Origin: a virus
Length of the DNA stretch: 36,131 bases
Reading direction: 5' to 3' (one strand)
IMG/VR virus record: IMGVR_UViG_3300011013_000004
Location: 1 to 36,131 of that record
The position numbers were made by a program, and so were the translations under genes. Below, one piece after another: positions 5,868 to 25,222 of the stretch. The notes beneath the pieces were generated by a model. It made no database searches, had not been told where the DNA came from, and worked only from the letters and a program-made list of their open reading frames with translations. Numbering within the stretch: position 1 is the first letter of the stretch; the number at the start of each line of letters is the position of its first letter.

Positions 5868-5877
5868 ATTTTTTTTA

Positions 5878-5950: not shown

Positions 5951-5982
5951 TACTAAGAATTTAAAATTGTTCTTTAAGTATT

Positions 5983-6070: not shown

Positions 6071-6112
6071 AATATTTAAACCAAATAAAATCAATAATTA
6101 AAACCTAATATT

Positions 6113-6301
6113 ATGAAAAAGGAACTAATAAGACAAGCAATAGAACTAATATCTGAAGCACAAAATTTAGTAGATGAAGCAGTAAGCGGAACTTCACAAG
6201 AAGCAAATTATAACGCTTATGGAAAGTATGGATTCAGCCAACTATTAGGCAACGGAAATCCTTATGACCCCAGTTTAGAGGACTTACTTGAAAATGAATA
6301 A
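6113..6301 (+). CDS. Small acidic early protein (62 aa)
   Basis: ATG preceded by AAAACCTAATATTATG. No motif recognised. Confidence 0.55.
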   Translation: MKKELIRQAIELISEAQNLVDEAVSGTSQEANYNAYGKYGFSQLLGNGNPYDPSLEDLLENE

Positions 6302-6312
6302 AACCTAATATT

Positions 6313-6492
6313 ATGAACCTAAAGAACAGATTATCAGTAATGATTCAGCACACTTCTAAGGAGCATCTGGATAAACTGGAGAACCTTTATAAAGGAGAAC
6401 ATCTTTACGAGAAAACAAGTGCAGCTTTCGAATGGCATCTTAAAGAGTGTCACGAATTACTAAAAGAATGCTTAAATGAATTAAATAAATAA
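6313..6492 (+). CDS. Small early protein (59 aa), below the ORF-track cutoff
   Basis: My own translation: MNLKNRLSVMIQHTSKEHLDKLENLYKGEHLYEKTSAAFEWHLKECHELLKECLNELNK. Preceded by the same 17-nt AAAACCTAATATTATGA as the gene 200 bp upstream. Confidence 0.45.
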   Translation: MNLKNRLSVMIQHTSKEHLDKLENLYKGEHLYEKTSAAFEWHLKECHELLKECLNELNK

Positions 6493-6502
6493 TAATTAAA
6501 AC

Positions 6503-6574
6503 CCAATCAAAATGAAAAAACCAATCAAAATGAAAAAACCAATGAAAAAGAAAAAACCAATGAAAAAGAAAGTA
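6503..6574 (+). repeat. Four tandem 18-bp units spanning the leader and start of the ERF gene
   Basis: ccaatcaaaatgaaaaaa occurs twice (6503-6520, 6521-6538), then ccaatgaaaaagaaaaaa (6539-6556) and ccaatgaaaaagaaagta (6557-6574). This gives in-frame ATGs at 6512, 6530, 6542 and 6560. Confidence 0.85.
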
Positions 6575-7078
6575 AGTGTATCTGACTTGCAACAAAAGTT
6601 AAAAGCACCAAAGAACCAGTTTAATAAGTTCGGTGGATTTGCTTACAGAAGTTACGAGGATATACTTGAAGCTATAAAGCCATTGTTAGGAACGGCATAT
6701 ATTAACACTACCTATCAACCAATCTGTATAGGTGACAGATATTATATTGAAGCAGTCGTTTCTTTAATAGACGATGGCGAAGTCCTTGCAATGTCTAAGG
6801 GGTTTGCAAGAGAGCCGGAATCAAAAAAGGGAATGGACGATAGTCAGCTAACAGGCAGTTGTTCGAGTTATGCAGCCAAGTATGCAATCTCTGGACTTCT
6901 TGCAATAGACGACACGAAAGACGCTGATACGAAAGAAGAAAAGCCAGAACTATCTCCAAAGCACGAAAAATGGCAGGGTGCAAAAGTATCATTGTCAAAC
7001 GGAGAAGTGGCAATAACGGATATTAAAAAACATTTCAAGCTAACGCCTAAAAACGAAAAACTATTATGTTTAAAATAA
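6512..7078 (+). CDS. erf: ERF-family single-strand annealing recombinase
   Basis: NQFNKFGGFAYRSYEDILEAIKPLL and TGSCSSYAAKYAISGLLAID match the conserved Erf-family blocks (xFxYxxLEDILxAxxP and GSxxTYAxRYxLxxLLGI). Lys-rich repeat at the N-terminus. Confidence 0.8.
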   Translation: MKKPIKMKKPMKKKKPMKKKVSVSDLQQKLKAPKNQFNKFGGFAYRSYEDILEAIKPLLGTAYINTTYQPICIGDRYYIEAVVSLIDDGEVLAMSKGFAREPESKKGMDDSQLTGSCSSYAAKYAISGLLAIDDTKDADTKEEKPELSPKHEKWQGAKVSLSNGEVAITDIKKHFKLTPKNEKLLCLK

Positions 7079-11876: not shown

Positions 11877-13244
11877 ATGAAGTATAGTGAATTTTTAGAG
11901 AGTAAAAAACATACAGCCAATAATTACGGATTCAATCCAAATATTATTAATGATGATATGTTTGATTTTCAAAAATATGTATTAGAATATGCCGTAAAAA
12001 AAGGCAGATGTGCCGTATTTTTAGATACTGGATTAGGCAAAACAATTATTGAGTTAATGGTTGCCAGAAACTACACATGGAAAACAAATAAACCTGTATT
12101 GATAATAACACCTTTGGCAGTAGCTTTTCAATTTATAAAAGAGGCGGAAAAATTTGACATAGGTAGTATTGAATATTCAAAAGATGGAAATTATAAATCT
12201 GATATTGTTATATGTAATTATGAGAGGTTAGATAAATTTAATTCTAATGATTTTGATTGTGTAATATTAGATGAAAGCAGCATATTGAAAAATTTTCAGG
12301 GTGCATTTAGGGAACAAATTACATCATTTTTAAAAAGGGTAAAATATAGATATTTATTTACAGCAACACCCAGCCCTAATGATTTTATTGAATTAGGTAC
12401 AAGCTCTGAGGCGTTGGGATATATGGGATATACTGATATGCTAACGAAATTTTTTACAAATAATGAGGACACTATAAATCCGATGAATATAGGAACTAAA
12501 TGGATATTAAAAGGACACGCAAAAAAGAGTTTTTTTGATTGGGTTAGTGGATGGTCAATCTCAATGAGAAAACCATCTGATTTAGGATTTGATGATAGTA
12601 AACATAAATTGCCAGAATTAATTACAAATTATCATTCTATAAAAAATGAAGAAAATTTAGTAGTAAATGGACAAGTGCAATTATTTAATCAGATAGCTCG
12701 CCGTTTAACAGAGGTTAGGGATGAACAGAGATTGACAATTAAACAAAGATGTGAGAAAGCGTTTGAACTTTCAAGCAACCATAATTATTCTGTTTATTGG
12801 TGCAATCTAAATAAGGAAAGCGAATTGATAAACCAAATGGATAAAGATGTACACGAAATAAAAGGAAGTATGAACATAGATAAAAAAGAGGAAATCTTAT
12901 TAGCTTTTTATAATGGAGAAATAAATAAATTAGTTACAAAGCCAAAAATGACAGCATTCGGATTAAATTGGCAACATTGTAATCATACTACATTTTTTCC
13001 AACATTTTCCTATGAGCAATATTATCAATCAATTAGACGATTCTGGAGGTTCGGACAAACATCAGATGTAATTGTTGATCTTATATTTTCAGATGGTCAA
13101 AAAAGGGTATTAGATGGATTATTAGCAAAAGCAGATAAAGCTAATGAACTATTTAATAAATTAAATGCATCCTTAAATTCAAATTATATTGACAATAAAA
13201 AAGAATTCGATAAATCAATAGAAATACCTAATTTTTTAAACTAA
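11877..13244 (+). CDS. SNF2-family (SF2) helicase/ATPase
   Basis: Motif I LDTGLGKT, motif II ILDESS, motif III FTATPSPN, motif VI QSIRRFWRFGQ. Confidence 0.85.
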   Translation: MKYSEFLESKKHTANNYGFNPNIINDDMFDFQKYVLEYAVKKGRCAVFLDTGLGKTIIELMVARNYTWKTNKPVLIITPLAVAFQFIKEAEKFDIGSIEYSKDGNYKSDIVICNYERLDKFNSNDFDCVILDESSILKNFQGAFREQITSFLKRVKYRYLFTATPSPNDFIELGTSSEALGYMGYTDMLTKFFTNNEDTINPMNIGTKWILKGHAKKSFFDWVSGWSISMRKPSDLGFDDSKHKLPELITNYHSIKNEENLVVNGQVQLFNQIARRLTEVRDEQRLTIKQRCEKAFELSSNHNYSVYWCNLNKESELINQMDKDVHEIKGSMNIDKKEEILLAFYNGEINKLVTKPKMTAFGLNWQHCNHTTFFPTFSYEQYYQSIRRFWRFGQTSDVIVDLIFSDGQKRVLDGLLAKADKANELFNKLNASLNSNYIDNKKEFDKSIEIPNFLN

Positions 13245-13250
13245 GAAACA

Positions 13251-14228
13251 ATGACAAAAGACCAATTAATTACAGATAAATTTGCAATCTATAATAGTGA
13301 TTGTATGCACGTTTTGCCAACATTAGATAATGATAGCATAGATTTTAGCGTGTATTCACCACCATTTGCAGGGTTATATAATTATTCCAGCTCAGAAAAT
13401 GATTTTTCTAATTGTGAAACAAAAGATCAATTTTTGCAACAATATGAGTACCTAATAAAAGAGGTTGCAAGGGTAACAAAACCAGGCAGGATTACAGCCG
13501 TTCATTGTACGGATATAATGAATTCCAAGTCAGGGCAATTATGGGATTTTCCAAATGAGATAATAAAATTGCACGAAAAATTTGATTTTAGATATAGGAA
13601 TAAAATAACGATCTGGAAAGAGCCACTAAAAGTCAGGATGCGTACAATGGTAAGATCTTTAATGCATAAATTAATCGTAGAGGATTCTACTGAATGTTTT
13701 ACGGCTATGCCTGATTATATTCTAATATTCAAAATGAAAGGAGAAAATGAAACTCCTGTAACGCATCCAGAGGGATTCAAATATTATGCAGGTGCAAATC
13801 CGATATTGCCTGAAATGGTTGAAAAATATGGTTCTCTTGATGATTTAAAAAAGAAATACAAAGACCATCAAGATCCAAAAACTAATAAACTAAGTCATAT
13901 TATATGGCAAAGATATGCATCCAGCGTATGGGATGATATTAGAATAGATGAGGTTTTAAAATTTAAAGAGGGTAAAGATGAAGATGACGAAAAGCACGTA
14001 CACCCACTGCAATTAGATGTTATTGATAGATTGGTGGAATTATACACTAATAAAAATGAAATAGTATTAACGCCTTTTATGGGCGTTGGTAGTGAGGTTT
14101 ATAGTCCTGTTTCATTAGGTCGTAAAGCTATTGGAATTGAATTAAAAGATAGCTATTATAAACAAGCAATAAAAAACTTAAAAGAGGTTGAATATAGATA
14201 TGCTGAAAATCAATTAACATTACTTTGA
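13251..14228 (+). CDS. Beta-class amino DNA methyltransferase (N4-cytosine or N6-adenine; SPPF type)
   Basis: Catalytic motif IV SPPF (13356-13367) precedes the SAM motif I VLTPFMGVGSE near the C-terminus. HPLQLDVIDRLV matches the HPxxKP block of the N6_N4 MTase family. Confidence 0.85.
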   Translation: MTKDQLITDKFAIYNSDCMHVLPTLDNDSIDFSVYSPPFAGLYNYSSSENDFSNCETKDQFLQQYEYLIKEVARVTKPGRITAVHCTDIMNSKSGQLWDFPNEIIKLHEKFDFRYRNKITIWKEPLKVRMRTMVRSLMHKLIVEDSTECFTAMPDYILIFKMKGENETPVTHPEGFKYYAGANPILPEMVEKYGSLDDLKKKYKDHQDPKTNKLSHIIWQRYASSVWDDIRIDEVLKFKEGKDEDDEKHVHPLQLDVIDRLVELYTNKNEIVLTPFMGVGSEVYSPVSLGRKAIGIELKDSYYKQAIKNLKEVEYRYAENQLTLL

Positions 14229-14232
14229 TATA

Positions 14233-14634
14233 ATGAAAAAGAAGAGTACCTTAACAACCTCAAAACTAAAAAAGAAATTAGACCGATTATTCTCGAAGTT
14301 TATCAAGCTAAGGGATGGAGGACAAGAGTTTTTTAAATGTATATCTTGCCAAAAGACAAAACCTCTAAGTCAGTTCAACGCAGGTCACTATTGGAGCAGA
14401 AGATATATGTCTGTAAGGTATGATGAAAAGAACGTCAATGGACAATGTATCTATTGTAATATGCACCTATCTGGAAATATACAAGGTTATAGAGAAGGAT
14501 TAATTAAAAAGTACGGAGAGGAAATATTACAACACTTAGATATTAAAAAGAATAACATTTCTAAGATGGGAAGATTTGAGTTTGAAGTGTTAATAAATGA
14601 GTATAACGATAAGATTAAGGTTTTAAAAAAATAA
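14233..14634 (+). CDS. ninG: NinG/Rap-like recombination endonuclease
   Basis: FIKLRDGG...CISCQK...NAGHYWSRR...VRYDEKNVNGQCIYCNMHLSGNIQGYREGLIKKYG aligns block by block with lambda NinG as I remember it (FIRERDRDLPCISCG...DAGHY...[34 protein letters not shown]). Confidence 0.85.
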   Translation: MKKKSTLTTSKLKKKLDRLFSKFIKLRDGGQEFFKCISCQKTKPLSQFNAGHYWSRRYMSVRYDEKNVNGQCIYCNMHLSGNIQGYREGLIKKYGEEILQHLDIKKNNISKMGRFEFEVLINEYNDKIKVLKK

Positions 14635-14635
14635 C

Positions 14636-14643
14636 TATCTTTG
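14636..14643 (+). promoter_or_regulatory. -7 box TAtcTTTG placed 4 nt before the ATG of the ParB-like gene (possible leaderless transcript)
   Basis: TATCTTTGTCAAATG at 14636-14650. No clear -33 TTTG at the expected distance. Confidence 0.35.
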
Positions 14644-14647
14644 TCAA

Positions 14648-15226
14648 ATGAAGATAAAAGATAGACCCATCAGCGAACTTATATTTGCTGAATATAACCC
14701 CAGAGAACTAACCCCAGACCAACACCAGCAGCTTAAAGATTCTTTGACAAGATTCGGAATAGTTGACCCTGTAATAGTAAACACCCACAAAGACAGAAAA
14801 GATATTATCGTAGGTGGACACCAAAGGACAAAGGTCTGGAAGGAAATGGGTAATAAAGAAATCCCTACAATAGAAGTTAATCTTAACCCAGAAAAAGAAA
14901 GGGAATTAAATATACGACTAAACAAAAACTCTGGTCAATGGGACTGGGCTGCACTTACAGAACATTTTGATTCTACCGACCTTGTGAAGTGGGGTTTTGA
15001 GGAATGGAATTTTCCAGAGAATGTTGATTATTCAATACTTGACGATACTGATTTAGGCGAAGAACTAACAGGTATGGAAAATGGAGTTAAAAAAGCAATA
15101 CAGATTGAATTTGAACCTGCTGACTATGAACAAGCCGTAGAAATGGTATCAAAATACAGAAAAGCAGGTGCGTATATTGGGGGGATTTTATTGCAACACT
15201 TATTAGACAATCAAAAGGAATTATAG
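14648..15226 (+). CDS. ParB-like nuclease domain (ParB/Srx fold) protein
   Basis: ISELIFAEYNPRELT and IIVGGHQRTKVW are the ParB N-terminal domain boxes (NPR and GxHR). Confidence 0.8.
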   Translation: MKIKDRPISELIFAEYNPRELTPDQHQQLKDSLTRFGIVDPVIVNTHKDRKDIIVGGHQRTKVWKEMGNKEIPTIEVNLNPEKERELNIRLNKNSGQWDWAALTEHFDSTDLVKWGFEEWNFPENVDYSILDDTDLGEELTGMENGVKKAIQIEFEPADYEQAVEMVSKYRKAGAYIGGILLQHLLDNQKEL

Positions 15227-15906
15227 TGCAAATAGAGAAATTTAAACATAAAGAAATTAATTTTTTAGCAAGAAGTGGAACATCAGATAAAAAGACCTTT
15301 GATGAAGTAATTATAAGGAATGTTTATGAAAAAAGATACTTTAAAATAAACTCTGGTGAACACTGGTTAGATTTAGGTGGTAACGTGGGTGCATTTGCAT
15401 TAAATGTATTAAATAAAGGTAGTTCTGTCGATATATATGAGCCAGACCCCTTTAATTGCAGAATGATAGAAAAGAATTTGAAAGCAAATAATTACAATGC
15501 CAATATACACCAAAAAGCTATTGTTGCAACGACCAGAAAAAAGATGGTAATGTATGTTGGAAATAATATGCAAGTTTGGAGGAATAGCTTATATAAGAAC
15601 TGGGGAAACCAAAAATTCAATGTAGATTGTATTCACTTTGAAGAAGTTATTAAAACTGATTCATTAGTTAAAATGGATATAGAGGGTGCAGAAATGGATA
15701 TATTAGAAAACCTTGCTATCTATCCTAAAAGGATGGTATTTGAATGGAGTTTTGACGTAGATGAAAGCTTAACAAGATACAGGAATATAGTCAAAAAGCT
15801 GAAAAAGGTCTATAAAAATGTAAAAGCACCAAATTATAACGACGCTTATGTCATTTGGCAGAAATCGTGGTTTCCTCCCTGTGCAAATGTTTATTGTTAT
15901 GATTAA
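15226..15906 (+). CDS. FkbM-family SAM-dependent methyltransferase
   Basis: LDLGGNVGAFAL (SAM motif I), VDIYEPDPFNCRMIEKNLKAN and DSLVKMDIEGAEMDILENL are FkbM (Methyltransf_21) hallmarks. GTG start shares 1 nt with the upstream TAG. Confidence 0.8.
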   Translation: MQIEKFKHKEINFLARSGTSDKKTFDEVIIRNVYEKRYFKINSGEHWLDLGGNVGAFALNVLNKGSSVDIYEPDPFNCRMIEKNLKANNYNANIHQKAIVATTRKKMVMYVGNNMQVWRNSLYKNWGNQKFNVDCIHFEEVIKTDSLVKMDIEGAEMDILENLAIYPKRMVFEWSFDVDESLTRYRNIVKKLKKVYKNVKAPNYNDAYVIWQKSWFPPCANVYCYD

Positions 15907-16723
15907 AGTAAATTTAATAGAAAAAGAACATAAAATAAAAATAGGTCAAAAGTGCCAAGATATTGAGCCGAACGTAAAAGAGGATTGTATATTTATGGCA
16001 GATGGAAAGCCAATAGGGTTCTTTATTAGGAAAATAAAGGGAAATTTAAAACAATATATTGAGATTGCAAACAATGAGTTTAAGAGTGATAATGTACCTA
16101 AAAGCAAAATGGCAAGGGCAGGAAAATTAAGGGCTTTGCAAATGGGTAAAAGTTTAAAAGAGGCAATGTCTATTGATGTTGAACAAATGAGTTGTATTTT
16201 GGGTGCAATTCCTCCAAAACAATTAATGCGAAGACCTTACCCAAACATATCAAGCGTTCATAGTGTAAAAACTGCAAGGACTTTTATTAAAGCTATGCTA
16301 TTAGCAAGTGCAGAAAGCGAAAAATTGATTAAAGAGATACTACCAGAACAATATAAGAAACAAAAAGAAATTTTATTAAAAACACCAAAAGAATTTAGAT
16401 TTGGAAACCTCTTTACAAGCAGCATTTCAAATTATAACATATCAGCACCTTTCCATAGAGACGCAGGAAACCTAAAAGAAACGATAAATGTAATAATAAC
16501 AAAACGCAAGTATTCAACTGGTGGTAATCTTTATATCCCTGACTATGATGTTTGTATAGACCAGTGCGACAACTCTATATTAGTTTACCCCGCTTGGAGG
16601 AACGTACACGGAGTAACACCAATTAAACAAGAGAACGAAAAAGGACATAGAAACTCTTTAATATTCTATCCCTTGAAAGCATTTGAGAAATATAATAAAG
16701 AGGAATTAATAGTAACAAAATAG
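15899..16723 (+). CDS. TET/JBP-family 2-oxoglutarate/Fe(II) dioxygenase (putative DNA base oxygenase)
   Basis: FHRDAGNLKETINVIIT (HRD at 16454-16462), NSILVYPAWRNVHGVTP (His at 16607-16609) and GHRNSLIFYPL (Arg at 16649-16651) parallel the TET core blocks HRDxHNxxxGxTVVCTLT, GSILIECAKxELHATTP and RxSLVFYQH. ATG 15899 overlaps the FkbM stop (ATGATTAA); ATG 15887 is an alternative start. Confidence 0.7.
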   Translation: MIKVNLIEKEHKIKIGQKCQDIEPNVKEDCIFMADGKPIGFFIRKIKGNLKQYIEIANNEFKSDNVPKSKMARAGKLRALQMGKSLKEAMSIDVEQMSCILGAIPPKQLMRRPYPNISSVHSVKTARTFIKAMLLASAESEKLIKEILPEQYKKQKEILLKTPKEFRFGNLFTSSISNYNISAPFHRDAGNLKETINVIITKRKYSTGGNLYIPDYDVCIDQCDNSILVYPAWRNVHGVTPIKQENEKGHRNSLIFYPLKAFEKYNKEELIVTK

Positions 16724-16759
16724 CAACCAAATAGATTAATTTGCGTTTAAATTAGTTAT

Positions 16760-17113
16760 ATGAAAACCAACAAAATCCAACAAACTAAAAAAGCACTTCT
16801 GGTAGCACTGGAAAAAACGCTTGGAATTGTGACCACTGCCTGTAAGATAGTAGACATTGATAGAAGCACCTTTTATAAATACTTCAATGAAGATAAGGAC
16901 TTTGCAAAAGCAGTTAAAGACGTTGATAACGTAGTTCTTGACTTCGCTGAATCTCAGCTACACCAACAAATCAAGGATAGCAATACGGCATCTACTATCT
17001 TTTACTTAAAGACAAAAGGAAAGAACAGGGGATATGTAGAACGTCAGGAGATTACAGGAAAGGATGGGGATGCAATAGAAATAACCGGTTTTAATTATGT
17101 CAAGCCAGAGTGA
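16760..17113 (+). CDS. terS: Terminase small subunit (HTH type)
   Basis: KALLVALEKTLGIVTTACKIVDIDRSTFYKYFNEDKDF...FAESQL...STIFYLKTKG is the usual HTH small-terminase pattern. Overlaps terL (GTGA). Confidence 0.7.
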   Translation: MKTNKIQQTKKALLVALEKTLGIVTTACKIVDIDRSTFYKYFNEDKDFAKAVKDVDNVVLDFAESQLHQQIKDSNTASTIFYLKTKGKNRGYVERQEITGKDGDAIEITGFNYVKPE

Positions 17114-18450
17114 AAGTCACCCCGACAATAAGACCAACGCTAAAACAGGACTTAGCATATCAAAAGCTATTAGACGACACGACGAAGTATATCCTATTTG
17201 GTGGCGGTGCAGGGGGTGGGAAATCTTGGTTAGGGTGTGAATGGTTAATAACAAGGTGTTACTTTTATCCAGAAACAAGATGGTTCATAGGCAGGGAAGA
17301 ACTAAAACGATTAAGGGATTCAACCTTCGTTACTTTCTTCAAAGTTTTTAAATATATGTTTGACCCTTTTGGAGTAACGTCAGGTCAGATGTTTAAGTAT
17401 AACGGCTCAGACCACTACTTTGATTTCTTTAATGGTTCAAGGGTTGATTTATTAGACCTCAAATACCTACCCTCAGACCCTTTATACGAAAGATACGGCT
17501 CAGTAGAATACACAGGAGGATGGATAGAAGAAGGTGGAGAGGTGGACTTTGGTGCGTTTGATATTCTAAAGACGAGAATAGGCAGACACTTAAACGACAA
17601 ATATGATACTCTGGGGAAGATTCTCATAACCTCAAACCCTAAAAAGAATTGGATTTATCATACCTTCTATAAGCCAGACAAGGAAAACATCTTACCTAAA
17701 GACCACGCCTTTATTAAGGCACTTGTTCAAGACAATCAATACATTGAGAGCAGGTATTTAGAATCCTTACAAGGACTTAAAGACCAAAATAAAAAGGAAA
17801 GATTACTATACGGAAACTGGGAGTATGACGACGACCCGGCAAAGCTGATGGACTACGACGCAATAACAGACCTATTCACTAATCAAGCCAACGGACAAGG
17901 AAACTATTTAACGGCTGATATAGCACGTTTTGGCAAGGATAAGACGATTCTAATGGCTTGGCAAGGGTATAGGGTTATTGAGGTACAAAGTGTCTTACAA
18001 TCGAGCATAACGGATTCAGCTACTTTAATAAAAGAAATGAGCAAAAGACATAACATACCACGCAGTAAGATAGTAGTAGATGAAGATGGGTTAGGTGGTG
18101 GAGTTAAAGACATACTTCGATGTAAGGGATTTGTTAATAATAGCACCCCTCATAAGGTCAAAGGAGAGAGAGAAAACTACCAAAACTTAAAGGCACAATG
18201 TTATTTTCGTCTTGCTGAACGAGTAAATCAAAGGACAATAGCAGTAGAATGTGATAGTGAAACAAGGGAGAGAATTACCGAAGAACTGGAAGTTATAAAG
18301 CAGAAAGACCCAGACCGAGATAATAAAGTGAACGTAATCCCTAAAGAAAAGATAAAAGATTTGTTAGGGCGTTCACCTGATTACGCTGATACGTTAATGA
18401 TGCGAATGTATTTTGATGTTAATAAAAAACGTATCTCGGTTTCGATTTAA
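17110..18450 (+). CDS. terL: Terminase large subunit
   Basis: Walker A GGGAGGGKSW and Walker B-like GGWIEEGGE. A C-terminal nuclease-type region follows (ADIARFGKDKT...VVDEDGLGGG...SPDYADTLMM). Confidence 0.9.
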   Translation: MKVTPTIRPTLKQDLAYQKLLDDTTKYILFGGGAGGGKSWLGCEWLITRCYFYPETRWFIGREELKRLRDSTFVTFFKVFKYMFDPFGVTSGQMFKYNGSDHYFDFFNGSRVDLLDLKYLPSDPLYERYGSVEYTGGWIEEGGEVDFGAFDILKTRIGRHLNDKYDTLGKILITSNPKKNWIYHTFYKPDKENILPKDHAFIKALVQDNQYIESRYLESLQGLKDQNKKERLLYGNWEYDDDPAKLMDYDAITDLFTNQANGQGNYLTADIARFGKDKTILMAWQGYRVIEVQSVLQSSITDSATLIKEMSKRHNIPRSKIVVDEDGLGGGVKDILRCKGFVNNSTPHKVKGERENYQNLKAQCYFRLAERVNQRTIAVECDSETRERITEELEVIKQKDPDRDNKVNVIPKEKIKDLLGRSPDYADTLMMRMYFDVNKKRISVSI

Positions 18451-18463
18451 AAAATATTTGTAT

Positions 18464-18471
18464 TAATTTTG
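18464..18471 (+). promoter_or_regulatory. Possible -7 box TAatTTTG downstream of terL
   Basis: TAATTTTG at 18464-18471, 20 nt before ATG 18492. At -33 there is only a TTTC (18440-18443). Confidence 0.25.
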
Positions 18472-18491
18472 AAAAACTAAAAAAATTTATT

Positions 18492-18689
18492 ATGGCTAAG
18501 AAAAAAGCAGAGAAAAAAGCAGAACCAAAGGTAATAGGCAGAGAAGGTATCTTTGCAGATGCACACAAGGAACTAAGCGGATTAGCAGCTAAGTATAAAG
18601 CACAAGCTATTTCACAATCAGGAGGAACGGCACAAAGATTAAACAAAGCGTCTATTGACATTGCACGATTAGCGAAGTTGTTTGTATGA
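18492..18689 (+). CDS. Small basic protein (65 aa)
   Basis: Lys-rich N-terminus MAKKKAEKKAEPK. ATGA-coupled to the next gene. Confidence 0.5.
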   Translation: MAKKKAEKKAEPKVIGREGIFADAHKELSGLAAKYKAQAISQSGGTAQRLNKASIDIARLAKLFV

Positions 18690-19411
18690 AGATTGAACTG
18701 GATGGTAAGGAGTTTGATATGCCTATACACTGGCAGGACGTTACTTTAGGACAAATCATAGAGAGTGATAAACTCTTAAATGATATGCCGGAGAAGTTAC
18801 GTTTAGTCACCTTTGAGAATAAGGAACAGGAATACACAGACGACGACCAGATAGATAATTGGAAGTTTTATAGAAAGTGGATAGGTTACTGGATTAAGAT
18901 ACCTGACAACTATGAACTTAAGATTGACGACGTTAAGATGTTATACCAAGCAACTCAAATCTTTATGGGTTCAGCGTCAGAAGATGACATCTTTATAGAG
19001 CCGACAATAACTTTCAAGGGCGTGGAGTATGGTTTGCCTGAAGCAGAGAAACTACTTAACGGACAGACAAAAGAAATGGCTAAAAGTAGTTACGGAGAGT
19101 TCATAGAATCAGCACAACTCACGACTAAGATTAATCAATTAAAATCAGGCGACCTCACGGCTTTACCATTACTCACGGCAATACTTTACAGACCAATCAA
19201 AGAGAGTGGCTTTTTGTGGTGGAAAAAGCGTAGGGTTTCTGATTACATTGAGGAAGAAGTTATGCAAAGGGTAGAAGTATTTAAAGACCTACCTATGGAC
19301 AAGGTTTGGGGTGCTTATTTTTTTTTAACCGAGCATCTGGGAAAGTATGTAAATGGTTTGGCGACCTCTTTAAAGGGGGAGGACAAGGTACGAGATATGG
19401 TTGGTACATAA
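18686..19411 (+). CDS. Hypothetical virion-module protein (241 aa); contains a T9 slippery tract near its 3' end
   Basis: Long ATG ORF. T-run at 19318-19326, with an ORF open in the -1 frame from 19306 to 19566. Confidence 0.6.
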   Translation: MKIELDGKEFDMPIHWQDVTLGQIIESDKLLNDMPEKLRLVTFENKEQEYTDDDQIDNWKFYRKWIGYWIKIPDNYELKIDDVKMLYQATQIFMGSASEDDIFIEPTITFKGVEYGLPEAEKLLNGQTKEMAKSSYGEFIESAQLTTKINQLKSGDLTALPLLTAILYRPIKESGFLWWKKRRVSDYIEEEVMQRVEVFKDLPMDKVWGAYFFLTEHLGKYVNGLATSLKGEDKVRDMVGT

Positions 19412-19566
19412 TGACCAAAAACATAGCTAAGTCAGGGGTGTTTGGTAGGAGTATTAAGGACGTAGAGAGGTCAAATTTATACGAGGTTTTTTACTTTGCA
19501 ATGGCAGAAAAGGTAGAAACAGATTTACAGAATGAGCATATTAGTAGCAGCACCAACAAGCGATAA
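19411..19566 (+). CDS. Either a small ORF (51 aa) or the -1 frameshift extension of the 241-aa protein
   Basis: ATG 19411 overlaps the upstream TAA (TAATG). The same frame is open back through the T9 tract. Overlaps the glycosyltransferase start by 35 nt. Confidence 0.3.
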   Translation: MTKNIAKSGVFGRSIKDVERSNLYEVFYFAMAEKVETDLQNEHISSSTNKR

Positions 19567-20242
19567 AAAGGATTATTGTATTTCCTTATATGCTCGACAA
19601 GTCCAGTCCTTTACATATCACAACTACGACAACTTTATTGTCGATACTTCTAAGGATAAAAACCACGTTCAAAGATTGTGGAAGTTAGGATTAAACGCAG
19701 AGAGAATAGAGCCATACGGAACGCCTACTGAGTACATAACAAGAAGTCAGAACCTAATTAGGGAGAAGGTTTTAATTGATGGTTACGAATGGTTGTTTTT
19801 ATTAGAAACAGATGTTTTTGTTCCGCTTAACATATTAGAGTATTTAATGTCTTTTGAGAATCCGGTACACGCCTTTTCTTACTTCATAACAGAGGACAAA
19901 GCAAAAGGATTATGTTTACAAGGACTAACAGAGAATGACGACAAAAGAGGAATGAGATTAAACCCAACTACTGGAGATAGTTTATTTAGTGGAGAGATAA
20001 AAGAAAGCTACGGGGTTGATTTTGATGTATATGCAACAGGGATGGGATGCGTATTAATACATAGGCACGTCTTAGAGGAACTCGATTTTAGAACAGACCC
20101 TAAATATCCAAACACGTTTAGTGATTCGTATTTCTTTGAGGACGTTAAAAGTTTAGGAATTAAGGCAGTATTAGACACAACAATAGTACCTGCTCATTAT
20201 ATGAATGATAGTTACGTAACCGACTTAAAAGTTTACCAATGA
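19532..20242 (+). CDS. GT-A fold (family-2-like) glycosyltransferase
   Basis: ILVAAPTSDKKDY...NFIVDTSKD (Rossmann start), RSQNLIREKVLIDGYEWLFLLETDVFVP (DxD-type ETD) and GMGCVLIHRHVLEELDF...FFEDVKSLGIK follow the GT2 pattern. Confidence 0.7.
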   Translation: MSILVAAPTSDKKDYCISLYARQVQSFTYHNYDNFIVDTSKDKNHVQRLWKLGLNAERIEPYGTPTEYITRSQNLIREKVLIDGYEWLFLLETDVFVPLNILEYLMSFENPVHAFSYFITEDKAKGLCLQGLTENDDKRGMRLNPTTGDSLFSGEIKESYGVDFDVYATGMGCVLIHRHVLEELDFRTDPKYPNTFSDSYFFEDVKSLGIKAVLDTTIVPAHYMNDSYVTDLKVYQ

Positions 20243-20718
20243 ACATACAAGGAATAATAGATGAACTCAGCACAATAGCGACGGCTTTTACTTCAGTTAG
20301 TAGCTTTAACTTTGGATTGCTAAGTGATATAAATGCCGACCAAGAAAAGAGCTATCCAATGGTTCAACTGAACTCAGAACTAACTTCTTCTAATATCCAT
20401 ACGTTTAATAATTACCTGCCAAAAGAAAAGACGTATTCTATTGATTTGATTGTGTGGGATATATACAAAATAAGTGAGAAGAAAACAAAGACATTACAAA
20501 ATAAATATTCAGATATTGAGATAATTGCCGACCAATACATTGCAGAAGTTTTGCGAAGAACAATAGGACTTGGCGGTGCTTTTACGTTAATGAATGACAC
20601 AGAGTTGGGTGGAACGTATGTAAGCAATTCTCATAACGATAAACTGGTAGGGATTAAGTATAGTTTAATATTCAGGTCAAGCAACGTCGGTTGTACGCTT
20701 GGCACATTTTCTTATTAA
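20239..20718 (+). CDS. Putative virion (neck / tail-completion) protein
   Basis: ATGA- and TAATG-coupled within the structural block. No firm motif. Confidence 0.5.
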   Translation: MNIQGIIDELSTIATAFTSVSSFNFGLLSDINADQEKSYPMVQLNSELTSSNIHTFNNYLPKEKTYSIDLIVWDIYKISEKKTKTLQNKYSDIEIIADQYIAEVLRRTIGLGGAFTLMNDTELGGTYVSNSHNDKLVGIKYSLIFRSSNVGCTLGTFSY

Positions 20719-21227
20719 TGAAGGATAGATTAATAAAAATTTTAATAGCTGCTTTGTCAGAGGAATTAATAAATCAAGGACACAAGAATACTGGTTCATT
20801 GATTAAGAGTTTTGAAGGTAGATTAATGGCAGACGGATTAGGTGTGGAGATATGGGGAAATAAATATGCTCACTATTTAGATAAGGGCGTTAAATGGCAC
20901 AAGAAAAGCAAAAGACCACCAGTCAAGCCGTTAATAGAATACTTCAGACAAAAGGGATCACCAGACCCAAAGGCAGCAGCATTTGCAACGATAGCAGTAT
21001 GGAAGAAAGGCGGTATGCCGACTGCAAATAGTTTTAAAAAATCAAAGACAGGAAAGAGAAAAGGTTTCATAAAAGAAGCGTTAAAAAGAAACAATAAAAA
21101 AATAGAGAAAGAAATGTTTTCCGACGCTACAAGGAAAATGAATAAACAAATTAGTAAAATCTTCAACCAATTAGAAACACACGGAGGTGGTAGCGGTTTT
21201 GGTGGTGGGGGAGTATGGGTATTTTAA
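20718..21227 (+). CDS. HK97 gp10-like head-tail/tail component
   Basis: NTGSLIKSFEG...GVEIWGNKYAHYLDKGV fits the gp10-family pattern (tGxLxxS...YAxyxExG). ATG 20718 (TAATG) is preferred to the track start at 20691. Confidence 0.55.
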   Translation: MKDRLIKILIAALSEELINQGHKNTGSLIKSFEGRLMADGLGVEIWGNKYAHYLDKGVKWHKKSKRPPVKPLIEYFRQKGSPDPKAAAFATIAVWKKGGMPTANSFKKSKTGKRKGFIKEALKRNNKKIEKEMFSDATRKMNKQISKIFNQLETHGGGSGFGGGGVWVF

Positions 21228-21230
21228 ATT

Positions 21231-22376
21231 ATGGCACTAAGTATAACAACAAGTCCTTACACTATTATTCCTGCATATAATCCTATTGTCTGGACAATAG
21301 ATTCAAGCAGTCCAACAATAGTAAGGGTAATAGCAGACGTATATGTTGATGGAACAAAGAGGGCAAGTATAGACAAAGACCCACGATTCGGAACAACTGC
21401 GACGTTTGATTTTGATATTCAGAGTGTTTGTCAGGATTACTTAACGGAAAATCTGGAATCAATTACAGGAAACTCAACGATAGATGCAGACAATTCAGAA
21501 GTAAAGATTAAGTTAGAATTATACGAAGTAGTTTTGACTGCCGGGTTATTGGTTACTGCTTGGGAAGAAGATGGAACAGGAACACCAGACCTTACAACCT
21601 CTTTTCACTGGGCGGTAAATGCTGCACTTCAGCACGAAGAAACACAAAATATCAATGCATACGTTCTTAGTTCGGCAACTCAATTATTCTTAACGCACTC
21701 ACCGAGAACGCTAAACTTAGAAAGAACAGAAACGGCACAATTACATTTTCTGAGCCACGAGGTAACTTTAACAACAAGGATTGCTTCTTATGATAGTTCA
21801 GATGTATTAGTGGCAACGACAACGGCAGCTTCATCACCAACAGACAAAGCGTCAATTACTTTAATAGATGGCAGTACGTTCACTGCATCTACGGCTTACA
21901 TTTTGGTCTATGTTGTGGATTCTCTTGCAGCAACAATATCAGAAACCCTACGCTATAATATAATAGATAATAATTGCAACGATAACGCTTTAAGGTTAAA
22001 GTGGGTTAATCCTTTGGGTGGAATAGATGCTTATACCTTCAATGCTGAAAGACGAGAAGAATTAAGATTTACTTCAAGGACATACGAAAAAGTAATTGAG
22101 CAAGGATATGCCGTACAAGATAGGGGAGATACAATACTAAAAACAACAGGCAAGGACTCTATTGAGATATTTTCTAAGGTTCTAACAAAGGCAGAATTAG
22201 AGTGGCTCAGTCAGATAGGAATATCTAACAACGTATGGATAGACGAAGGGGATAATGTTTTTGTACCAGTTATTGTAACGTCAAGAAAAGTCAAGACGTT
22301 AAATTCAAGCAATAAAATCTTCCAAGCAAACTTTAAGCTGATAAAAGCAAATGAACGCATAACACACAAAGGGTGA
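21231..22376 (+). CDS. Tail/baseplate structural protein (381 aa), family unknown
   Basis: Large ORF coupled (GTGA) to the 949-aa tail protein. Thr/Ser-rich, beta-type composition. Confidence 0.55.
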   Translation: MALSITTSPYTIIPAYNPIVWTIDSSSPTIVRVIADVYVDGTKRASIDKDPRFGTTATFDFDIQSVCQDYLTENLESITGNSTIDADNSEVKIKLELYEVVLTAGLLVTAWEEDGTGTPDLTTSFHWAVNAALQHEETQNINAYVLSSATQLFLTHSPRTLNLERTETAQLHFLSHEVTLTTRIASYDSSDVLVATTTAASSPTDKASITLIDGSTFTASTAYILVYVVDSLAATISETLRYNIIDNNCNDNALRLKWVNPLGGIDAYTFNAERREELRFTSRTYEKVIEQGYAVQDRGDTILKTTGKDSIEIFSKVLTKAELEWLSQIGISNNVWIDEGDNVFVPVIVTSRKVKTLNSSNKIFQANFKLIKANERITHKG

Positions 22377-25222
22377 GGACTAAGTTAGAAATAAGAGATA
22401 CGGATAATGATATTCTGGGAACGATAGACATAGGCAAAGACGAGGATTTTCCTTTTACGCTTACCAAAAGATTAGCCAGTTTGAACAATATTTCTAAGCG
22501 TGGCGGTGCTTATTCAAAGACGTTTAAAGTGCCTTCTACGAAAGAAAATAATCAGTTACTACATTACCTATACTCAACCAACCAAAAGGTCGTAGATGGC
22601 TTTAGAGAACGCAAGACGGCTAATGTATTAGTAGATGACATTATAATAGAAAGAGGTTATGTAAAGATAACAGATATTGAAGTTAAGAATAAGACGGAAT
22701 ATTATGTTATGACTTTCTTCGGTGATAACGTCCAATGGATGACCGACCTTGCAGAAACTCAATTACCTGACTTGGATTATAATTATCCATTTGCTTCTGT
22801 TGTTTATAGTGATACAAATATTGCTAATAGTTGGTCACAAACTTATGACGATGGATGGGATATTATTTACCCTTGGATTTGTTACGGAGAATATGAAAAT
22901 GGAACAACCCTAACGACAGAAGATTTTTATCCTGCGTTACGTTACAGAGCAATAGTGGAAAGGGCTTTAAATAAGGTAGGATATAATTTAAGTTCTGCGT
23001 TTATGGACACGGCAGATTTCAAGCAGTTAATCTTTCCGTTTGTAGGTGAGAAGTTCGAATTATCTCAGGCAGTAGTTGATGACAAACTATTCAGAGCATC
23101 TTTCAGTTCGTCAGGTTCAGTAACGACTTATTATTGCGACCTCGACACAAACAATTTAGGACAACAGGGACTGGTTTCTTTATTGGCTTTTGATGACGAT
23201 TCCACTGGTGATAATTTTGATACTGGTGGGAATTATGACACTACTAACAATGAATACACAATCTCTAAGAAAGGAAAGTATAGGTTTAGAATTACCTTAG
23301 ACCCCTATCAATCAAGCACACCAAATGTTCAGTTGGGAGTATTCTTATATAAAAATGGTTCAGCGTTAGATACTATTTATCCGTATTCTATTATAACAGG
23401 AAAAGAAGTAAGGGAATCAGGATATTATGAATTTAATAATGGTGACAAAGTACAAGCAAGAATAGGTTTATTAGGCAGACCACCAGTAATAAAAGTAACA
23501 AATAGTACAGGAAATTTTATAGATGGAGAAACCATAACTGGAGGAACAACGGGGTTTCAGGCAGAGGTAGTATTAAATGTAACTGCAAGGGATAATTTAA
23601 CCCCTACGACAGACCAGATATTACGACTTAAGATTAAGCATACTGGAACACCAGACCCTGAATTTGATTGGTTCGACGTGGCGTTTGGACCAGAAACAAT
23701 TACTGGTTCTATCTCAGGAGTAACAGGACAAGCAGCACACTATTATTATAGTCAAAACGACTATACGCCAGACCCCTTAAGTTATGACTATATAAAATTC
23801 AAACCTTTTGGTTCTTATTTCGAACTAATAGATATGAATAAACAAATTCTCGAAGGTGAGGAATATGTGATAGCAGATGTAGTGCCTGATATTAACGTAC
23901 TGGATTTGTTTGCAGATATTACTAAAATATTCAATCTTTATTGGTACACGGATAACAAGACAAAAACAATATACGTAGAGGAAAGGGATAGTTTCTTTCA
24001 AGCAATAACAACTGGCGTAGATTGGACTAAGAAGTTAGCTATTGACAAGGAAGAAAAGATTAAGTTTATAACCGACTATAAAAGGGATTTATTATTTAAG
24101 TATGCAGAAGATTCTAACGATAAATTCTTAGCAGAGAGGAACGAACAGAAGGTATATTCTAATAACTTATATTGTTCTTATAAACATACGTTTCCTGACA
24201 GATTTCCAAAAGGACAAGACAACTTAGAAACAAGCGTAATAGCACCTACTTATATAATCCACGATGACAGAGCAGTAGCAAATCCAAACACAACAAACTA
24301 CGGAATTACTGCGAGAATGTGGAATGAATCGACGTTAGGACACCCCCCCAAGTCACTTGCTTTTCAGCCGAGAATACTAAACTTCCAACACGGAACACAG
24401 ACAATAGATGGAGATACGCTTTATATTAATGTAGATGGAGTAAACTACTCAAATATTCCTTCAGCTTTGCCTATTGAGGTATTCGGAAACTCAGTACCTT
24501 ATTCATTGAGTTTTGCACAGGACGATGGCTTGTTTAAGACCTATTACGATAGGACAATGACCATAATAGAAGATGGTATTCAATTACAAGCATATTTTGA
24601 TCTAAGTCCTAACGATTATCAGACGTTAGACATACGTAAACCGATATACTTAAACAACCCAGAAGAAGTACAAGGGTATTGGATTATTGACACAATAAGT
24701 GATTATAGTCCTTTTAAACCACTAACAAAGGTGACGTTATTGAAATATCATAATCAAGACGACACAGAAACAAAGATAGTTATAGATACTGGCTGGAGTC
24801 CACCACCTTTTCCAGACCCAACGGGCGGTGACTTTCCACAAGAACGCAGACAGATAGTAAGCGAAGGAACAAGCACAGACGGAACAACCCCCAACGGAAG
24901 TAACCCTGAGAAAATGGGTATGGTAGTAAACAATGGAACAGGCAACAAAGCTGCAAAAGGTTCTGGTTCTTTGGCACTTGGTCAGGGATGCGTTGCGAAA
25001 TATAGCAATCAAACTTTCTTAGGAAGTTATCCAGAAATAACAGACGATAAAATTGCAATAGGAGTAGGCACAGAGAACGAAAGAGTAACAGGATTAAGAG
25101 TAGATTCAGAGGGCGACTTAACATTGTATGGTGGAGAAGTTTACATCATAAATACAAGCGGAGAAAGAGTACCAGTAACTATTGAATCAAACGAAAAAGT
25201 TAAAAAAATATATCTTAAGTAA
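22373..25222 (+). CDS. Large tail protein (949 aa), putative distal-tail or host-specificity protein
   Basis: Size, position next to the tape measure, and GTGA/TAATG coupling. No catalytic motif recognised. Confidence 0.6.
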   Translation: MRTKLEIRDTDNDILGTIDIGKDEDFPFTLTKRLASLNNISKRGGAYSKTFKVPSTKENNQLLHYLYSTNQKVVDGFRERKTANVLVDDIIIERGYVKITDIEVKNKTEYYVMTFFGDNVQWMTDLAETQLPDLDYNYPFASVVYSDTNIANSWSQTYDDGWDIIYPWICYGEYENGTTLTTEDFYPALRYRAIVERALNKVGYNLSSAFMDTADFKQLIFPFVGEKFELSQAVVDDKLFRASFSSSGSVTTYYCDLDTNNLGQQGLVSLLAFDDDSTGDNFDTGGNYDTTNNEYTISKKGKYRFRITLDPYQSSTPNVQLGVFLYKNGSALDTIYPYSIITGKEVRESGYYEFNNGDKVQARIGLLGRPPVIKVTNSTGNFIDGETITGGTTGFQAEVVLNVTARDNLTPTTDQILRLKIKHTGTPDPEFDWFDVAFGPETITGSISGVTGQAAHYYYSQNDYTPDPLSYDYIKFKPFGSYFELIDMNKQILEGEEYVIADVVPDINVLDLFADITKIFNLYWYTDNKTKTIYVEERDSFFQAITTGVDWTKKLAIDKEEKIKFITDYKRDLLFKYAEDSNDKFLAERNEQKVYSNNLYCSYKHTFPDRFPKGQDNLETSVIAPTYIIHDDRAVANPNTTNYGITARMWNESTLGHPPKSLAFQPRILNFQHGTQTIDGDTLYINVDGVNYSNIPSALPIEVFGNSVPYSLSFAQDDGLFKTYYDRTMTIIEDGIQLQAYFDLSPNDYQTLDIRKPIYLNNPEEVQGYWIIDTISDYSPFKPLTKVTLLKYHNQDDTETKIVIDTGWSPPPFPDPTGGDFPQERRQIVSEGTSTDGTTPNGSNPEKMGMVVNNGTGNKAAKGSGSLALGQGCVAKYSNQTFLGSYPEITDDKIAIGVGTENERVTGLRVDSEGDLTLYGGEVYIINTSGERVPVTIESNEKVKKIYLK

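Follow-up and report, generated by a model that had tools for sequence, protein, structure and literature searches.

The window, which is the whole 36,131-nucleotide stretch of DNA analyzed here, is a complete 36.0-kb marine phage genome carrying a conserved DNA base-modification cassette that lacks a C5-cytosine methyltransferase (C5-MTase). The cassette encodes a ParB-like protein, an FkbM-type methyltransferase and a TET/JBP dioxygenase (ParB, FkbM and TET below), and the three ORFs almost certainly represent a real functional unit. The evidence leans slightly toward a module in which thymine is converted to 5-hydroxymethyluracil (5hmU) and the product is then modified by FkbM. The class to which the oxidation belongs was described in 2025-26; the methylation is a prediction beyond it.

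Components of the cassette

The original prediction had described three ORFs chained by overlaps of 1 and 8 nt, a box in front of the first ATG and a set of peptide motifs. All of them were located in the window: the ORFs (Table 1), every quoted motif, the 1-nt TAG/GTG overlap at the ParB-FkbM junction (15224-15228), the 8-nt overlap ATGATTAA at the FkbM-TET junction (15899-15906), and the box, with a gap of 4 nt to the ATG. The TerS-like and TerL genes are conserved neighbors 3' of the cassette and lie outside the enzymes of the pathway. TerL was found within 6 kb of the cassette in 47 of 80 FkbM loci, and the cassette-terminase layout of the window also occurs in Prochlorococcus phage MED4-184 and mycobacteriophage Acadian. 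In Pelagibacter phage HTVC112P, the cassette is followed by eight small ORFs and then by TerL, ~1.8 kb 3' of the cassette.

Table 1. Positions of the cassette genes, the upstream box and the terminase genes in the window
Feature	Positions	Strand	Description
TATCTTTG box	14636-14643	+	4 nt 5' of the ParB-like ATG (14648); possible but uncertain Bacteroidota-type -7 promoter element
ParB-like protein	14648-15226	+	192 aa; N-terminal ParB/Srx nucleotide-binding domain, acidic linker, conserved C-terminal segment
FkbM-family (Methyltransf_21) SAM-dependent methyltransferase	15226-15906	+	226 aa; GTG start; PF05050, TIGR01444
TET/JBP-family Fe(II)/2-oxoglutarate dioxygenase (5mYOX)	15899-16723	+	274 aa from ATG 15899; Tet_JBP
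TerS-like	16760-17113	+	PHROG matches
TerL	17110-18450	+	Pfam Terminase_3

The TET ORF matched the Pfam family Tet_JBP (PF12851) with 48.1 bits (cut-off of 34.9, E = 9.8e-13). The HxD...H iron ligands and the 2OG-binding arginine were present, and H186, D188, H237 and R251 were invariant in 60 homologs as well as in a 12-sequence alignment including the Acadian and HTVC112P proteins. The TET/JBP assignment and its H/D/H/R residues, as originally proposed, are thus upheld. The protein shares 47% identity with its counterpart in MED4-184, and the N-termini of the homologs favor a start at 15899 over that chosen by the gene callers (15848). Its C-terminus is short, with ~17 residues following FYPLKAF and no cysteine among them, whereas the TETs of Acadian, HTVC112P and loci L050 and L032 carry a C-terminal cysteine, and the Acadian tail extends to ~45 residues.

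The FkbM ORF scored above the cut-offs of both PF05050 (36.3 bits against 22.7, E = 8e-9) and TIGR01444 (55.1 bits against 37.7, E = 1.1e-14), and also matched PHROG 28597 (8.5e-52), to which no function is assigned. Its AF2 model (pLDDT of 92) found FkbM family members as the top matches among viral structures (BFVD), with a TM score of 0.71. The FkbM call of the original prediction therefore held at both the profile and the structure level, and the ORF is a true member of the family with the class-I methyltransferase fold and SAM motifs. A Foldseek search of the PDB with the same model returned only generic class-I methyltransferases (fibrillarin, TrmA and TYW2) at TM scores of ~0.5 and did not name an acceptor. 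Sequence searches of the PDB with FkbM and TET gave nothing significant (best E = 0.11; TET2, E = 0.37 over the H...R region).

The alignment of the FkbM subfamily showed no variation in motif I, motif II, WRNS, KMDIEGAE and EWSFD, including the SAM-motif residues D49, G51, G55, E72 and D74. Two cysteines, C135 and C224, were also invariant. D151/E153 are found in the motif IV loop and E173/S175/D177 in the motif VI loop; neither loop has a cysteine, and hence neither shows Pro-Cys or Thr-Cys. FkbM itself is the 31-O-methyltransferase of FK506 biosynthesis; the window enzyme shares its fold and its SAM-binding and acidic active-site motifs, but differs in the predicted acceptor, a DNA base, for which a literature search found no member of the family. 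No paper pairing FkbM with TET, ParB or phage was retrieved in that search, and FkbM was absent from the top-ranked matches for phage DNA modification. A scan of bacterial genomes for prophage copies of the subfamily yielded relatives of no more than 32% identity, all of them remote and with no TET or ParB nearby. The subfamily, PHROG 28597, is restricted to viruses.

ParB_N was detected at residues 3-83 of the ParB-like protein with 31.5 bits (Pfam cut-off of 26.3, E = 1.9e-7), together with matches to PHROG 620 and 498. The homolog alignment showed an invariant G57 and R60 in the GGHQR box and, toward the C-terminus, a conserved KKAIQIEFEP segment and conservation over residues 148-185. With 192 residues, the protein is too short to hold a canonical HTH domain beside the nucleotide-binding domain (NBD).

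We searched the window for a C5-MTase, the lack of which had been pointed out in the original prediction. PF00145 gave no match in the 29 ORFs scanned, and none of the six-frame segments of at least 120 aa combined the C5-MTase motifs. The motif filter caught a single ORF, of 159 aa, which has one PC[QT] match and neither ENV nor xGxG. The first 123 nt of the window are identical to its last 123 nt; since the genome is closed, the absence of a C5-MTase is genome-wide, confirming the earlier observation.

Linkage of the cassette genes and the slot between ParB and TET

The FkbM subfamily is encoded on 257 IMG/VR contigs, from which 80 FkbM loci were taken for the linkage counts. TET adjoined FkbM in 80/80 loci, showing that the FkbM-TET adjacency of the window is conserved. 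ParB was present in 75-78 of the 80, nearly always abutting as ParB-FkbM-TET, and the linkage of the cassette genes is far above chance. The triad was also found in Prochlorococcus phages MED4-117 and MED4-184 (P-HS2), and in HTVC112P the order is ParB-TET-FkbM. FkbM proteins of 51-53% identity were paired with a TET subclade that is only 22-23% identical (L032 and L050), indicating that FkbM follows the product and not one particular dioxygenase. Prochlorococcus and SAR11 are among the hosts of phages with the cassette, and a further host may belong to the Bacteroidota. A DNA-level search for the cassette in 50,697 phage records gave no match, and the informative searches were those at the protein level.

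The slot between ParB and TET was surveyed in 76 loci with a TET 56-66% identical to that of the window. It contained FkbM in 17 loci, TAGT (PF20691) in 33, and AADT (PF18724), GATase and P-loop kinase-like genes in ~5-6, and was empty in 9. TAGT, AADT, GATase, kinase and a 301-aa protein without known function were found in none of the 80 FkbM loci. FkbM-partnered TETs were up to 90% identical to TAGT-partnered ones and up to 82% identical to those partnered with AADT/kinase; the median identities were 61-64% between partner classes and 62% within a class. This exchange of partners beside a nearly unchanged TET and the mutual exclusivity of the partners suggest that FkbM is one of several interchangeable enzymes that tailor the TET product, and we consider it reasonably likely that FkbM acts on that product. 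The AADT/kinase machinery constitutes a known 5hmU-based pathway of thymidine hypermodification (PMC8989533, PMC13229309).

Proposed pathway and alternatives

The three translationally coupled genes would make up a post-replicative thymine-modification module. In step 1, the ParB-like protein would activate its cognate TET/JBP dioxygenase on double-stranded DNA, and the dioxygenase would hydroxylate the C5-methyl group of some thymines in the phage DNA to give 5hmU. Homology, genomic context and the published biochemistry of the class point to this step, and the enzyme, a predicted thymine dioxygenase making 5hmU, probably acts on T. In step 2, the FkbM SAM methyltransferase, a predicted tailoring enzyme, would modify 5hmU, most likely by O-methylation of the new hydroxyl to 5-methoxymethyluracil. 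We infer this step solely from the equivalence of the slot and the chemistry of the family. A glycosyltransferase or a kinase/amino-acid-transferase pathway takes the capping role in other phages. The module would be expressed just before the terminase genes, so that modification would precede packaging, and its likely purpose would be escape from host nucleases and glycosylases.

Our proposal that FkbM O-methylates 5hmU in DNA, with carrier phages thus holding 5-methoxymethyluracil, is tentative, and 5-methoxymethyluracil as the specific product is a predicted possibility. To our knowledge, this base has been reported in no natural DNA, and no nucleobase-modifying enzyme is known to us in the FkbM family. 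The literature search likewise found no paper pairing methoxymethyl with hydroxymethyluracil in phage. Three routes had been suggested originally, among which JBP-like action on thymine together with O-methylation of the hydroxymethyl base is the best-supported reading. O-methylation of an attached sugar, suggested alongside the latter, found no support: TAGT and the other slot genes are absent from the FkbM loci, and a GT1-family glycosyltransferase occurs in only 7/80 of them, 3' of TerL.

The modified group need not be the hydroxymethyl. If the dioxygenase oxidized thymine iteratively to 5-carboxyuracil, FkbM could methyl-esterify the carboxylate to form 5-methoxycarbonyluracil, which we regard as rather unlikely. 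The linkage evidence fits this chemistry too, and a capping step would be useful because 5fU and 5caU are excised in E. coli. However, the characterized FkbM-family members known to us methylate hydroxyls and not carboxylates, and TAGT and kinase/AADT, which take the place of FkbM in the slot, all work at the hydroxymethyl stage. Iterative oxidation itself is on record for phage T-dioxygenases in vitro (PMC13229309). FkbM might also have a target other than the dioxygenase product, such as another position in DNA or RNA, one of its partner proteins (ParB, TET) or a molecule of the host, and travel with the cassette for regulatory or selfish-cassette reasons. A structure search that leaves the acceptor undefined, with RNA methyltransferases (fibrillarin, TrmA) among the top PDB neighbors, is compatible with such a role, as are the two invariant cysteines to which no role is assigned. 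We nevertheless consider it unlikely, given the constant adjacency to TET (80/80) across two TET subclades 22-23% identical and two gene orders, the strict exclusivity between FkbM and other tailoring enzymes in the slot, and the cellular relatives, none of which exceeds 32% identity or lies beside a TET.

The remaining alternatives place the methyl group before the oxidation. FkbM could be a non-canonical DNA methyltransferase, e.g., at cytosine C5, whose methyl group is oxidized by TET from 5mC to 5hmC, as one of the original suggestions had it. The lack of a C5-MTase in the genome and the unfailing TET neighbor of FkbM would agree with this role, and one might in principle see nucleophiles in the invariant C135 and C224, but the motif IV and VI loops show the residues given above instead of Pro-Cys or Thr-Cys. 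Moreover, TETs 56-66% identical to that of the window are paired with no methyltransferase at all (ParB-TET alone or with TAGT) or with 5hmU-specific AADT/kinase. The near identity of TAGT-partnered and FkbM-partnered TETs means that the substrate must already be in the DNA. ParB-associated 5mYOXs also make 5hmU in E. coli without an added methylase, and we find a methyl-supplying FkbM quite improbable. Still less probable, in our estimate, is that TET oxidizes 5mC made by a Dcm-like methylase of the host, with FkbM capping the resulting 5hmC. Some phage 5mYOXs also oxidize 5mC (PMC13229309). However, the cassette is distributed across Prochlorococcus, SAR11 and possibly Bacteroidota phages, which makes a single host methylase unlikely, and the AADT/kinase partners of near-identical TETs indicate thymine as the substrate.

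Related systems and other sequences in the window

The ParB and TET of the window match the ParB-dependent phage thymine dioxygenases of 5mYOX clade C1 (clade E in the preprint, with 5mYOX176/ParB176 as an example; O'Toole et al., PNAS 2026, PMC13229309), which produce 5hmU in E. coli only with ParB and have no neighboring C5-MTase. Both have a TET/JBP protein beside a short ParB-like protein (NBD and C-terminal segment, no obvious DNA-binding domain), no adjacent C5-MTase, frequent terminase neighbors and tailoring enzymes in the cassette. The ParB proteins of the published subclass are described as an NBD joined to a C-terminal dimerization domain, without a DNA-binding domain, and NTR is the preferred context of the published ParB-dependent enzyme. 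By analogy with that clade, the ParB-like protein is a predicted activator of the dioxygenase, and ParB dependence of the window TET is likewise predicted. The tailoring gene differs, being of the FkbM type, which that paper merely counts: Methyltransf_21 is on 6.2-7.0% of the 5mYOX contigs in its mining table, with no function given. The window TET also lacks the conserved cysteine and the long C-terminal extension beyond it that are described for the subclass, in a comparison with the reference 5mYOX176 that is indirect and by description. The original statement that such a pathway would be unusual has been overtaken by these publications of 2025-26, which cover ParB-dependent phage T-dioxygenases and include the FkbM co-occurrence (PMC13229309).

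Mycobacteriophage Acadian (cluster B) encodes ParB, TET, TAGT, PIG-L, TerS and TerL as gp1-gp6. The architecture is the same as that of the window, with ParB, TET and product-tailoring genes directly 5' of the terminase genes, but the tailoring is by TAGT glycosylation and a de-N-acetylase, and the TET identity is ~20-29%. In the base J pathway of trypanosomatids, the thymine hydroxylase JBP1/2 is followed by the glucosyltransferase JGT. Here, too, a TET/JBP enzyme turns T in DNA into 5hmU, whose hydroxyl then receives a cap, glucose in base J and, as predicted, methyl in the window; a ParB activator stands in place of the JBP DNA-binding and SNF2 domains, the SNF2 gene of the window being unlinked to the cassette. 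The phage clusters of C5-MTase, TET and glycosyltransferase (clades A/B) share with the window a TET/JBP enzyme whose oxidation opens the post-replicative hypermodification, but require the adjacent C5-MTase, which the window genome lacks, and make 5hmC (Burke et al., PNAS 2021, PMC8256090). The 5hmdU kinase/AADT system (Lee et al., NAR 2021, PMC8989533) also uses 5hmU in DNA as the handle; it differs in that the classic 5hmU comes from nucleotide-level synthesis and is processed by phosphorylation and substitution, not methyl transfer.

If the proposed pathway is correct, a further base would be known from natural DNA and a new class of acceptors from FkbM methyltransferases, and methyl capping would join glycosylation and amino-acid/polyamine substitution as the third way in which 5hmU is tailored. 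ParB-TET cassettes would then be plug-and-play systems that combine an almost constant dioxygenase with exchangeable caps, be it a sugar, an amino acid, a methyl group or no cap. Hundreds of marine viral contigs would carry the base, as would cultured phages of Prochlorococcus and SAR11. With these two major marine hosts concerned, the modification could affect host-range barriers, the study of marine viromes by nanopore or restriction-based methods, and enzyme tools for 5hmU mapping. The cassette offers a direct test system for the role of the many uncharacterized T-dioxygenase partners, a question left open in the 2026 paper (PMC13229309).

Three further genes, for an SNF2 ATPase, an N6/N4 MTase and a GT-A enzyme, accompany the triad in 0/80 loci. 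The SNF2 and N6/N4 MTase genes jointly match a fusion family (PHROG 16). A JBP2-like role of SNF2, which had been placed in the pathway, was thus discarded, and the N6/N4 MTase was ruled out as a pathway component as well. The ORF at 19532-20242 had no Pfam or PHROG match, and its AF2 model (pLDDT of 78) matched GT-A enzymes (E = 6e-9, TM score of 0.55-0.62), with D38 and D94 invariant. The GT-A fold proposed for it therefore stood but its pathway role did not, since the gene does not accompany the triad and is kept, at 51% identity, in a syntenic relative (L089) without FkbM and any homolog of the window TET.

A scan of positions 13200-17300 for sigma-70 promoters and terminators found no plus-strand terminator, and all signals were at the background level. 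The box motif TANNTTTG occurred 52 times in the window against 51 expected, i.e., without enrichment, and was dropped as a window-wide signal. An enrichment remained in the intergenic DNA of the plus strand, where 9 of the 25 matches were located against an expectation of 10.3% (p = 6e-4).

A three-gene cassette in a closed genome

The three overlapping ORFs of the original prediction were found where it had placed them. The ParB-like and FkbM-type ORFs share 1 nt (TAGTG, 15224-15228), and the FkbM-type and TET ORFs share 8 nt (ATGATTAA, 15899-15906). Gene callers choose an upstream ATG (15848) for the TET ORF; in the alignment, the N-termini of homologs line up with 15899. The domain identities also held, since all three proteins exceeded the curated cut-offs: 31.5 bits against 26.3 for ParB_N, 48.1 bits against 34.9 for Tet_JBP, and 36.3 bits against 22.7 for Methyltransf_21/FkbM, with 55.1 against 37.7 for TIGR01444. 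The methyltransferase matched PHROG 28597, a function-less family (8.5e-52), and the dioxygenase matched PHROG 6059 (1.6e-49). The TET-like residue set proposed for the third ORF showed no variation among homologs; H186, D188 and H237 are its iron ligands, and R251 binds 2OG. A terminator scan found no + strand terminator inside the cassette, which fits its co-transcription.

Features of the window and of relative loci (window coordinates unless a locus is named)
Feature	Position	Strand	Description
SNF2/DEAD helicase	11877-13244		PHROG 16 profile positions 267-609
SPPF-motif N6/N4 methylase	13251-14228		PHROG 16 profile positions 663-920
ParB-like ORF	14648-15226	+	192 aa; ParB_N
FkbM-type methyltransferase ORF	15226-15906	+	226 aa, GTG start; Methyltransf_21/TIGR01444
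TET/JBP dioxygenase ORF	15899-16723	+	274 aa; Tet_JBP
GT-A candidate ORF	19532-20242
L032, FkbM-TET pair	5105-6666
L050, FkbM-TET pair	2207-3816
L089, NinG-TerS slot	1731-6205		ParB, 264-aa protein, PAPS reductase, GATase_6, PAPS reductase/DUF3440, second ParB

Nucleotides 1-123 of the window are identical to 36009-36131, so the genome is complete and closes into a circle of 36,008 bp. The sequence also corresponds to ENA contig ERZ27251151 k141_95291 (34,979 bp). The claimed absence of a C5-cytosine methyltransferase was borne out: a Pfam scan found no DNA (cytosine-5) methylase domain in any of 29 ORFs scanned, and the sole hit in a motif scan of six-frame segments of at least 120 aa, an ORF of 159 aa, had a single PC[QT] match but lacked both ENV and xGxG. 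The sole classical DNA methylase in the genome is the N6_N4 enzyme (1.5e-24).

The promoter-like box TANNTTTG was not enriched window-wide (52 matches, 51 expected); in the intergenic DNA of the + strand it was over-represented, with 9 of 25 matches versus 10.3% expected (p = 6e-4). This excess and the GC content of 35% are compatible with a Bacteroidota host and are no proof of one. Two boxes end 4 nt upstream of an ATG (14636-14643 before 14648, and 28790-28797 before 28802). Should these be Bacteroidota -7 elements, the transcripts would have almost no leader.

Conserved linkage and the slot between ParB and TET

Relatives of the FkbM-type protein were found on 257 IMG/VR contigs, and 80 loci were retrieved for neighborhood analysis. 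The predicted FkbM-TET linkage proved conserved: TET adjoins FkbM in all 80 loci, ParB is also encoded in 75-78, and in almost all of them the genes abut in the order ParB-FkbM-TET. The only other recurrent neighbors are terminase subunits (TerL in 47 of 80, plus several TerS-like clusters). The Prochlorococcus siphophages MED4-117 and MED4-184 (P-HS2) carry ParB, FkbM, TET, a small ORF and then TerL, and the order in Pelagibacter phage HTVC112P is ParB, TET (gp18, Tet_JBP 1.1e-29), FkbM. At two relative loci, L032 and L050, an FkbM protein 51-53% identical to that of the window is paired with a TET subclade only 22-23% identical to the window's, which fits an enzyme recognizing a common product, not a particular protein partner. 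No ParB was detected at these two pairs, which may be ParB-independent. In 185,579 species genomes the best relatives of the FkbM subfamily reached no more than 32% identity, and neither TET nor ParB lay near any of these 80 cellular loci. Judged from these comparisons, the TET-linked FkbM subfamily is virus-restricted.

A reciprocal alignment query with TET retrieved at least 569 viral contigs, and the best 76 loci, with TETs 56-66% identical to the window's, were examined. FkbM was present in 17 of the 66 with enough upstream DNA. Among these best 76 loci, the ParB-TET slot held a TET-associated glycosyltransferase (TAGT, PF20691) in 33, FkbM in 17, an amino-acid:DNA transferase (AADT, PF18724) with GATase_6 and P-loop kinase-like genes in about 5-6, a 301-aa protein without known function in 4 and a GNAT in 1; in 9 it was empty, with ParB abutting TET. 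Alternative slot genes occurred in none of the 80 FkbM loci. TETs of FkbM cassettes were up to 90% identical to those of TAGT cassettes and up to 82% identical to those of AADT/kinase cassettes, and the median identity was 61-64% between cassette classes and 62% within the FkbM class. These identities indicate that the same dioxygenase serves in all of these cassettes and that the neighboring gene is an interchangeable tailoring step. At greater distance, mycobacteriophage Acadian shows an equivalent architecture (ParB, TET, TAGT, PIG-L, TerS, TerL).

Predicted chemistry of the cassette

Phage thymine dioxygenases (5mYOX) have been divided into two subclasses (O'Toole et al., PNAS 2026, PMC13229309; preprint 10.1101/2025.08.14.668559), one of which requires a cognate ParB-like activator to convert T to 5hmU on dsDNA. 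The ParB-dependent enzymes have no adjacent C5-MT, are frequently near terminase genes and carry an extended C-terminus after a conserved Cys (PMC13229309). The ParB and TET pair of the window is a member of this described class. Judged against the paper's description, however, the window TET ends 17 aa past the conserved core without the Cys, whereas the TETs of Acadian, HTVC112P, L050 and L032 have it. ParB dependence is thus not to be assumed for the window's subclade, although ParB nearly always adjoins TET even there. The FkbM partner has previously been counted and not studied: in the mining table of the preprint, the entry 'O-methyltransferase (FkbM), Methyltransf_21' stands at 6.2-7.0% of 5mYOX contigs, compared with 5.6-6.3% for C5-MT (10.1101/2025.08.14.668559), and neither paper nor preprint gives the methyltransferase a function (PMC13229309; 10.1101/2025.08.14.668559). 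Our literature searches found no paper connecting FkbM with TET, ParB and phage, none for methoxymethyl and hydroxymethyluracil in phage, and, in a looser search for FkbM and phage DNA modification, no mention of FkbM among the top-ranked papers. The cassette as a whole is real and belongs to a class described in 2025-26; its novelty is the FkbM step.

Elaboration of 5hmU in DNA is the established function of AADT, P-loop kinase and GATase (PMC13229309; also reported in PMC8989533), so the common product of these TETs, as judged from their gene neighbors, is most likely 5hmU. The original prediction had offered three roles, namely FkbM supplying the methyl group, FkbM O-methylating the hydroxymethyl base or a sugar, and a JBP-like dioxygenase acting on thymine; the last two together, with the base as the methyl acceptor, give the best reading. 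The AF2 model of FkbM (pLDDT 92.2) had FkbM-family methyltransferases as top viral structural matches (TM up to 0.71) and, among solved structures, matched generic class-I methyltransferases only (TM about 0.5). The SAM-binding motifs (D49, G51, G55; E72, D74, P75) and an acidic loop resembling motif IV (K149, D151, E153, G154, E156) are conserved, as are W118-R119-N120-S121 and W174, S175 and D177, with E173 at 90% or more. Pro-Cys and Thr-Cys are absent from the catalytic loops, which argues against C5-pyrimidine methylation chemistry. C135 and C224, invariant in the TET-linked subfamily even in the HTVC112P protein at 28% identity, sit in beta-strands outside the motif IV/VI loops. FkbM would O-methylate the hydroxymethyl group of 5hmU and so cap it, and we tentatively propose 5-methoxymethyluracil as a possible product. 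The main chemical alternative, a methyl ester of 5-carboxyuracil, arises because thymine dioxygenases of this class are reported to be capable of iterative oxidation in vitro (PMC13229309); we regard it as improbable. If 5-methoxymethyluracil is the product, it would add a new base to those of natural DNA. The prediction is directly testable in cultured marine phages.

Neighboring genes and public annotations

The SNF2 ATPase had also been suggested to fit a multi-step base-modification system, and this part of the prediction failed: none of the 80 FkbM triad loci encodes a homolog of the SNF2 helicase, the N6/N4 methylase or the GT candidate. From their profile positions, the helicase and the methylase look like a split helicase-methylase unit of the PHROG 16 fusion family, unrelated to the TET cassette. 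The GT candidate had no Pfam or PHROG match; its model showed the predicted GT-A fold (pLDDT 78, Foldseek E = 6e-9, TM 0.55-0.62), matching COLGALT1 (collagen hydroxylysine galactosyltransferase), Mimivirus R699 and LH3 best and also WrtF and TarP. L089, a Tara Oceans locus syntenic with the window (identities of 73% for NinG, 62% for TerS, 76% for TerL, 51% for GT and about 50% for tail genes), retains the GT-A gene at the equivalent position, and no FkbM or homolog of the window TET was found in it. The GT thus lies in a structural module independent of the TET cassette, and its proposed role in base modification is not supported. It may glycosylate a virion protein, not DNA. The late-gene order is unusual (17110-32827): TerL, tail genes (tape measure 25222-28092), a ClpP-type protease (28802), a putative capsid and the portal (31565).

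The 264-aa protein in the L089 slot had no Pfam match. This cassette, flanked by two ParB-like genes and lying in the slot that holds the TET cassette in the window, probably represents a further, IbrA/IbrB-like DNA-modification system and marks the NinG-TerS slot as a likely hotspot of cassettes linked to ParB.

Several public records (NC_020847, MN698246 and NC_023701; loci L001, L002 and L086) are misannotated. The TET/JBP genes of MED4-184 and Acadian, and PHROG 6059, are wrongly named 'queuine tRNA-ribosyltransferase', gp18 of HTVC112P is misnamed 'DnaJ chaperone/putative SNF2 DNA repair protein', and the ParB-like gene of MED4-184 is misnamed 'DNA methylase'.
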